64,000 bases of DNA. Source: Escherichia phage BP32. The position numbers and the translations under genes were made by a program. The stretch lies in sequence record OR906198.1; one strand, written 5' to 3'. Positions 15,088-15,948 of this stretch are shown piece after piece (position 1 is the first letter of the stretch; the number at the start of each line of letters is the position of its first letter). Below the pieces are notes generated by a model. The model did no database searches, was not told the DNA's origin, and saw nothing but the letters and a program-made list of their open reading frames with translations.

Positions 15088-15088
<1 letters not shown>

Positions 15089-15948
15089 TGAAACAATACC
15101 AATTTTTAATTAAAGATATCCTGGAAAATGGCTATGAAACTGATGACCGAACAGGCACAGGAACAATTGCTTTGTTCGGTACTAAATTACGCTGGGATTT
15201 AAGTAAAGGTTTTCCTGCAGTAACAACTAAGAAGCTCGCTTGGAAAGCTTGCATTGCTGAGCTAATATGGTTTTTATCAGGAAGCACAAATGTCAATGAT
15301 TTACGATTAATTCAGCATGATTCATTAATTCAAGGCAAAACAGTCTGGGATGAAAATTACGAAAATCAAGCAAAAGATTTAGGATACCATAGCGGTGAAC
15401 TTGGTCCAATTTATGGAAAACAATGGCGTGATTTTGGCGGTGTAGACCAAATTATAGAAGTTATTGATCGTATTAAAAAACTGCCGAATGATAGGCGTCA
15501 AATTGTTTCTGCATGGAATCCAGCTGAACTTAAATATATGGCATTACCGCCTTGTCATATGTTCTATCAGTTTAATGTGCGTAATGGCTATTTGGATTTG
15601 CAGTGGTATCAAAGAAGTGTTGACGTGTTCTTGGGCTTGCCATTCAACATTGCATCATATGCTGCGTTAGTTCATATTGTAGCTAAGATGTGTAATCTTA
15701 TTCCAGGAGATTTGATATTTTCTGGTGGTAATACTCATATCTATATGAATCACGTAGAACAATGTAAAGAAATTTTACGTCGTGAACCTATGGATTTATG
15801 CGAATTACAATTAAAATTTCCAGATGAATTTGATGAATGGGACACAGAATCGCAGGTATTTTGGTTGAGTCAATTCGCAAAGCCGCATAATTTTGTTCTT
15901 AACAACTATGTATCTCATCCGCCAATTAAAGGTAAAATGGCGGTGTAA
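15088..15948 (+). CDS. td: Thymidylate synthase, uninterrupted (no group I intron)
   Basis: [26 protein letters not shown]... continuous 286 aa ORF matching T4 TS across the whole length. Confidence 0.95.

Follow-up and report, generated by a model that had tools for sequence, protein, structure and literature searches.

An intron-free td gene in a T4-like phage carries an RB32-type recoded tract at the I-TevI homing site

The td gene of phage T4, which encodes thymidylate synthase (TS), is split by a group I intron that carries I-TevI, a homing endonuclease of GIY-YIG type, and its record gives an exon 1 of 549 nt, an intron of 1017 nt with I-TevI and an exon 2 of 312 nt, in agreement with the split T4 gene to which a first-pass annotation of the present DNA had compared it. 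The same annotation described the td gene found here, in a 64-kb stretch of phage DNA (the window), as uninterrupted, which raises the question of whether the intron is really absent and, if so, whether an empty insertion site amounts to an intact homing site. The gene lies at 15088..15948 on the + strand, where a single frame of 286 codons and a stop runs continuously from the ATG at 15088 to the TAA at 15946-15948; the mechanical ORF list places the start at a TTG at 15076, and homology sets it at the ATG at 15088 (MKQYQ, as in T4). Residues 2-286 of the product cover the whole Thymidylat_synt profile of Pfam (PF00303, positions 1-266 of 266, E = 4e-94; 315 bits against a cut-off of 24.3), and a phmmer search of the PDB aligns residues 1-286 with residues 1-286 of the T4 enzyme, 1TIS (E = 1.7e-177). 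The peptides of the catalytic site, ALPPCHMFYQF with the PPCH cysteine loop and WYQRSVDVFLGLPFNIASY with the YQRS arginine, are the same as in T4, and we regard 15088..15948 as the predicted functional, intron-free thymidylate synthase gene of a Tequatrovirus (T4-like) phage.

Alignment with the spliced T4 gene, a check proposed for the exon junction from the outset, is colinear with zero gaps, including across nt 549/550, and the equivalent of the intron insertion site (15636..15637, +, GGC|TTG) is unoccupied. With the T4 td intron, the nrdB intron and mobE as queries, local blastn gave no match anywhere in the 64-kb window, and tblastn with I-TevI gave none there at E <= 0.01; as a positive control, the same queries recover the intron at 99.5% in YUEEL01. 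The td gene is without a group I intron and without the intron-encoded endonuclease I-TevI, and both the continuous frame and the intron-minus state read from the letters alone are thus borne out. The further statement that the translation follows T4 end to end is right about colinearity but overstates the resemblance, since identity is 88% at the amino acid level and residues 234-268 belong to a different cassette. An Rfam scan of the 64-kb window was also without a match and carries no weight as a test for introns, because in the T4 control (NC_000866 136000-148000) Rfam 15 at gathering thresholds was equally silent over the two known group I introns of td and nrdB; with both missed, such silence is unusable for excluding ORF-bearing phage group I introns.

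That the apparent coding sequence of td conceals a short intron or other insert, for instance at residues 234-268 (15787..15891, +), has a vanishingly small probability. What could suggest it is a fall in DNA identity to T4, to 28-48% in 60-nt windows over nt 690-805, but the segment is in frame, of T4 length and free of stops, it aligns residue for residue with 1TIS and falls within the full-length Pfam match, and its form recurs in many phages as one of two alleles. It is moreover far below the size of any group I intron core, the ORF-less td intron of N2 measuring 254 nt. A self-splicing insert or a frame break within 15088..15948 is excluded by the full-length Pfam match, the 1TIS alignment and the intron searches.

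The scarcity of homing endonucleases extends beyond td. The nrdB gene (18822..20000) is also intron-less and colinear with the spliced T4 gene, the junction falling at 19497|19498, and its similarity to T4 changes exactly at the position of the T4 nrdB intron: upstream of the junction the two genes share 62-92% of their nucleotides, with several indels, against 98.2% downstream, and the proteins are 84.5% identical before the junction and 100% after it. In T4 the nrdB intron holds a defective gene for I-TevIII. With the end of nrdA at 18770 and the start of nrdB at 18822, mobE and nrdB.1 are both missing. Further upstream (10605..12610), the genes for gp33 (the late-transcription coactivator), gp59 and gp32 directly follow one another, a gap of only about 100 nt separating 59 from 32, and segG, the homing endonuclease gene that T4 carries at this place, is missing. 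The stretch is poor in homing endonucleases, being without I-TevI, mobE, the nrdB intron and segG.

Alleles of td without the intron have been familiar in T-even phages since the 1980s, and they are not rare: about 413 of the 597 td-bearing phage records hold td in one piece, counted as a single match covering at least 80%, and the T4 td intron was found in 260 records, 197 of which have it at nearly its full length. In a published table, intron-encoded endonucleases are entered only for T4, T6, RB3 and LZ2, and none for T2, RB14, RB15, RB18, RB26, RB32 and RB51 (PMC2993671). The phage collection searched contains no record identical to the window; the best local match over frd-td-nrdA.1 is the intron-containing YUEEL01 (97.6%), the best genome match over 25 kb is GEP001 (96.5%), and over the same 25 kb the closest genomes include EC121 and Maryam, both intron-plus. 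Since alleles with and without the intron occur side by side among the nearest relatives, the presence or absence of the intron tells little about identity, and the proposal that the intron-minus td is informative in this respect proves weak: the state is that of the majority, and the best local match has the intron. An uninterrupted td is the ordinary, commoner state among the relatives of this phage and that of the majority in present databases, it has little significance taken alone, and the allele belongs to a known haplotype, that of RB32. The detailed comparison of alleles presented below covers about 25 of roughly 600.

Genes of T-even phages are usually fine-scale mosaics, and the td gene of the window is one as well, mostly 96-99% identical to the td of T4 or T2 and interspersed with three segments that would be foreign. 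Overall identity to T4 is 86.4% (nt) and 88% (aa), unevenly spread along the gene: nt 240-525 and 578-689 are about 99% identical, and the T4-unlike segments are nt 16-36, nt 690-805 (residues 234-268) and a tract at the intron insertion site. The small N-terminal segment (15103..15123, +; D6F and F12L relative to T4) is common to YUEEL01 and P8 and is not found in LYE-01 or T4. At residues 234-268, T-even phages have one of two unrelated allelic cassettes of equal length, the form of the window being also that of P8, YUEEL01 and RB32 and the T4 form that of T2, UFV13 and N2, and the two assort independently of the sequence at the homing site. This part of the protein is a C-terminal surface segment of TS, in the region where alignments to bacterial TS end.

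The neighbourhood of td is similarly variable. Upstream, between frd (dihydrofolate reductase; 14304..14885, +; Pfam DHFR_1, E = 1.5e-19) and td, there is a 68-aa accessory ORF (14882..15088, +) that overlaps the frd stop (ATGA) and the td start (TAATG), matches phrog_9550, of unknown function (E = 1e-45), and is annotated in YUEEL01, P8, Maryam, EC121 and sb1. It is absent from T4, where frd and td overlap directly. In RB32, LYE-01, UFV13 and OE5505 the frd/td junction holds an unrelated ORF of 115 aa (phrog_1928), flanked in the RB32 record by a 9-bp repeat, and the occurrence of two unrelated ORFs at the same junction makes it an insertion hot spot. We considered whether either ORF could be the remnant of an endonuclease and rejected the idea, as both match only PHROGs of unknown function and show no link with the sequence at the homing site. 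Downstream, a 108-aa homologue of nrdA.1 (16189..16515; DUF4326) overlaps nrdA.2 by 47 nt; its best PHROG is phrog_464, at positions 182-300 of a 322-position profile, and it also matches weakly an NrdA-like family, the RB32 version being shorter (288 nt).

It is the tract at the insertion site that bears on homing. Numbering its positions from the insertion site (td nt 549|550, that is, 15636|15637), the window and T4 differ between -24 and +12 (15613..15648, +) at 14 of 36 positions, all silent, leaving 22/36 identical. T4 reads CGC TCA GTA GAT GTT TTC TTG GGT CTA CCG TTT AAT and the window AGA AGT GTT GAC GTG TTC TTG GGC TTG CCA TTC AAC, both encoding RSVDVFLGLPFN, so that ten of the 12 codons are changed, among them an arginine (CGC>AGA) and a serine (TCA>AGT) that switch codon family. 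Compared with six close alleles (T4, T2, P8, YUEEL01, Maryam and L003), this patch holds 12-15 differences (33-42%), against 2.5-5% in the remainder of nt 1-689; the enrichment has a hypergeometric P of 1e-9 to 1e-13, and in a permutation scan none of 20,000 permutations reached the observed 36-nt maximum (P <= 5e-5).

The odd allele at the patch is that of the window and not that of T4. T4-like bases are found there in the intron-plus T4, YUEEL01, Maryam and EC121 and also in the intron-minus T2, P8 and L003-L005, and the sharing of these bases by intron-less phages rules out the idea that the flanks of T4 were co-converted together with its intron and made T4 the exception. The RB32-type haplotype is defined by AGAAGTGTTGACGTGTTCTTGGGCTTGCCATTCAAC at -24..+12 within an otherwise T4/T2-like td; the window has it, and its patch is identical at 36/36 positions to those of RB32, LYE-01, UFV13, OE5505 and sb1. 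Searches with 64-nt junction probes at >=80% coverage retrieved about 28 records of the window type, including RB32, RB33, HY01 and LYE-01, and 138 of the P8/RB51 type, and no natural intron-less record matched the exact spliced junction of T4. The 36-mer stays the same where its background varies, in the flanks (95-99% identical), the C-terminal cassette and the ORF upstream of td, and it forms one fixed tract in all seven of the carriers compared, which is equally compatible with one old event. General hypervariability of the I-TevI site in the td genes of T-even phages was unsupported in a 12-allele sample, in which diversity without the window-type alleles was 0.10 in the patch, a value similar to those of other local peaks, and 0.05 overall.

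Whether the empty site is still a target depends on what the enzyme reads. The I-TevI site spans 38 bp, made up of a CNNNG motif and a 20-bp binding region centred on the insertion site, and is cut 23 and 25 nt upstream of that site (PMC2988022); C1 and G5 of the motif are the critical bases for cleavage (PMC5009752, PMC2988022). At the equivalent position the window has CAAAG (15610..15614, +, -27..-23; CAACG in T4), with C-27 and G-23 kept and no indels up to the insertion site, and the uninterrupted exon junction leaves the 20-bp binding region contiguous. Being empty, with the CNNNG motif at its native distance, the site would remain a potential I-TevI target. The first-pass annotation went further and called it an intact homing site, a description that stands as to the vacancy of the site and the two critical bases and fails as to the sequence, with 14 of the 36 bases from -24 to +12 departing from T4 and the patch being the RB32 variant, which had reduced activity in a published fusion assay.

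Taken in full, that description would have I-TevI cleave the site and the T4 intron home into it at the normal high frequency, which seems to us rather unlikely. The vacancy of the site, the native spacing of C-27 and G-23 and the unchanged peptide WYQRSVDVFLGLPFNIASYA agree with it, as do the tolerance of I-TevI for many substitutions (PMC2988022) and its preference for A/T-rich NNN triplets such as AAA in the CNNNG motif (PMC4065259). On the other hand, the departures from T4 include spacer positions 2 and 3, and among natural td variants activity was equal or higher on all except RB32, whose motif and spacer are identical to those of the window and on which it was reduced (PMC4065259). The window changes spacer positions 1, 2, 3, 4, 7, 10 and 13; sensitivity is reported for position 2 among others, and at position 3, a G in the window, C3T is the worst single substitution reported (PMC4065259). 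Within the 20-bp binding region, six positions differ from T4 (-1, +1, +3, +6, +9 and +12). We therefore consider the site to be probably a weakened target, cut less well than sites of the T4, T2 or P8 type, a judgement tempered by the same tolerance for substitutions and the same favoured AAA triplet, and by the nature of the RB32 test, which was made in yeast with the I-TevI nuclease and linker as a Tev-TALE fusion and used the motif and the 15-bp spacer only (PMC4065259). The equivalence of the tested RB32 substrate and the window sequence rests on the RB32 genome record.

Natural mosaics show that alleles of this kind have nevertheless recombined with the intron. In HY03, sequence of T4 type surrounds the full-length I-TevI intron from about -28 to +3 and is set within an Sf24-like exon 1 and an exon 2 that is RB32-like from +4 and carries the markers TTC AAC (+9, +12). 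This tract, which runs from the cleavage site to +3, looks like the smallest co-conversion tract that a break at that site would be expected to leave, and, judged by this mosaic structure, HY03 shows that sites of a related family have been invaded, which favours the fully intact site and suggests that such sites are cut in nature. It is no proof that the RB32-type spacer itself is cleaved, because the cleavage-site half of the recipient has been overwritten. WL-3 and N2 have the reverse arrangement, with window-type sequence from -24 to -2, then a T at -1, the intron and a donor-type exon 2. Because cleavage at -23/-25 should erase -24..-2, these two need another route, either a crossover or a break nearer the insertion site; the patch region contains a second CNNNG, CTTGG at -7..-3. 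WL-3 (L094, vB_EcoM_WL-3, MT968995; 982..2860) has a full-length td intron with an I-TevI that is 96% identical in amino acids, and its td gene is unannotated in the record. In N2 (L093, ON645936; 982..3029), td is split by a 254-nt ORF-less intron of T4 type composed of T4 intron nt 1-84 and 860-1017, and some 270 nt downstream of td, on the opposite strand, there is a free-standing gene resembling that of I-TevI (44% aa identity over residues 20-241), an arrangement that could allow trans-homing. The search with the 64-nt window-type probe found no record with window-type sequence on both sides of the intron.

As to where the patch came from, its nearest kin are distant td genes: it is identical to Sf24 at 33 of 36 positions (overall td identity 81%), to the Mosigvirus phiC120 at 32/36 (76%) and to L034 of IMG/VR at 32/36 (81%). 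The 5' splice site of group I introns requires a U at exon position -1 (a G.U pair), and all intron-containing alleles examined have T there; the window, with its junction GGC|TTG, has C. The switches between arginine and serine codon families, unreachable by single silent steps, and the C at -1 both point to a divergent lineage that never held the intron, from which the tract -24..+12 would have been introduced by short-tract recombination; import of this kind is the most likely origin. It is argued from the codon-family switches and from neighbours of 89-92% identity. No donor with the exact 36-mer in a divergent setting turned up: the 36-mer occurs neither in IMG/VR nor in the JGI metagenome contigs, the 23-mer of its left half is absent from IMG/VR, and in the phage collection the nearest haplotypes share no more than 85-87% over 62 nt. 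With Sf24-like sequences as donors, the left edge of the tract falls at -28 to -24 and the right edge at +12 to +18, giving 36-45 nt and a nearly exact overlap with the 38-bp I-TevI site. The best explanation, in which we have reasonable though far from complete confidence, joins these elements: an intron-free td of RB32 type, whose patch was imported and whose site is probably a weakened I-TevI target.

What brought the patch to this place may have been selection for escape from the enzyme, neutral repair of a break, or the chance mosaicism of these genomes. On the first account, which we put forward tentatively and hold to be possible but doubtful, the RB32-type patch is a naturally selected, I-TevI-refractory allele that entered by introgression from a divergent td lineage, was trimmed to the 38-bp footprint of the enzyme by recombination with T4/T2-like genomes, and persists on many T-even backgrounds by lowering cleavage and invasion by the td intron, under selection against cleavage and marker exclusion. 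The extent of the foreign tract relative to a 38-bp site that starts at CNNNG fits this account well, as do the recoding of ten of 12 codons with no change of amino acid, the constancy of the 36-mer where the flanks, C-terminal cassette and upstream ORF differ, the reduced activity on RB32 in the published test, and the lack of window-type sequence on both sides of the intron among the 64-nt probe matches. Against it stand the intact CNNNG motif, at least two recombinations between the intron and window-type sequence (WL-3, N2 and HY03), and the rarity of the haplotype, which makes up about 28 of some 413 intron-less records and is not sweeping. Other small mosaic patches exist in td, so that one of them should fall on the site has, by a rough post hoc estimate, a probability of a few percent, and the diversity of the site without window-type alleles is no higher than at other local peaks.

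The second account strikes us as improbable. It takes the patch for a neutral scar: I-TevI would have broken an intron-less genome at -23/-25, a divergent, intron-less td from a co-infecting phage would have served as template for the repair, and a short one-sided conversion tract beginning at the break would remain. It would explain why the patch begins, on its left side, where I-TevI cuts (-24 being the first position that differs) and why the GGC|TTG junction is of the intron-free type, and homing repair is known to co-convert flanking exon sequence (PMC2988022). It demands, however, a three-way encounter, with a source of nuclease and a divergent intron-less template preferred over the intron donor; its tract runs toward exon II, whereas published co-conversion is biased to exon I because I-TevI remains bound on the exon II side (PMC2988022); and it offers no explanation for a right edge that falls where the binding site ends.

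Whichever of these accounts applies to the patch, it is not safe in this case to equate an empty insertion site with an intact homing site, because the recognition sequence of I-TevI has been swapped nearly throughout at silent positions. If the patch lowers cleavage, phages of the RB32 type would be a natural system for the escape of a target gene from a homing endonuclease, could help to explain the intermediate frequency of the td intron among T-even phages, and could guide the choice or avoidance of spacer sequences for Tev-based genome editors. Should the escape allele be real, it would record, at the level of populations, the arms race of a phage gene with its homing endonuclease.

Among known systems, the closest in kind is RB32 (NC_008515, RB32ORF228c), which has the same uninterrupted td of 286 codons, the 36-nt patch at 36/36 positions and the CAAAG motif, and the haplotype occurs also in RB33, HY01, PEC04, LYE-01, UFV13, OE5505, sb1 and others, about 28 records in all. 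The td of the window is 96.3% identical to that of RB32 and 98.4% to that of LYE-01, the flanks of the RB32-type records differ from the window by 1-5%, and the ORF upstream of td is that of 68 aa in the window and that of 115 aa in RB32 and LYE-01. T4 (NP_049848; 1TIS) has the same enzyme, colinear over residues 1-286, and the same neighbourhood of frd, td, nrdA.2, nrdA.1 and nrdA, and it differs in the 1017-nt intron with I-TevI, in its version of the patch, in the other cassette at residues 234-268 and in having no ORF between frd and td; it also has mobE, the nrdB intron and segG, all three of which the window is without. HY03, WL-3 and N2 each have one half of the window-type patch beside a td intron and, unlike the window, have the intron itself, T at -1 and CTT at +1..+3. 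Phages of the P8/RB51 type (138 records) and T2 share with the window the uninterrupted td and the empty insertion site, P8 also sharing its C-terminal cassette and 68-aa upstream ORF, whereas their sites are mostly T4-like (CAACGN TCN GTA GAT GTT ... GGT CTT CCA TTT AAT), have T at -1 and match the patch of the window at 21 of 36 positions.
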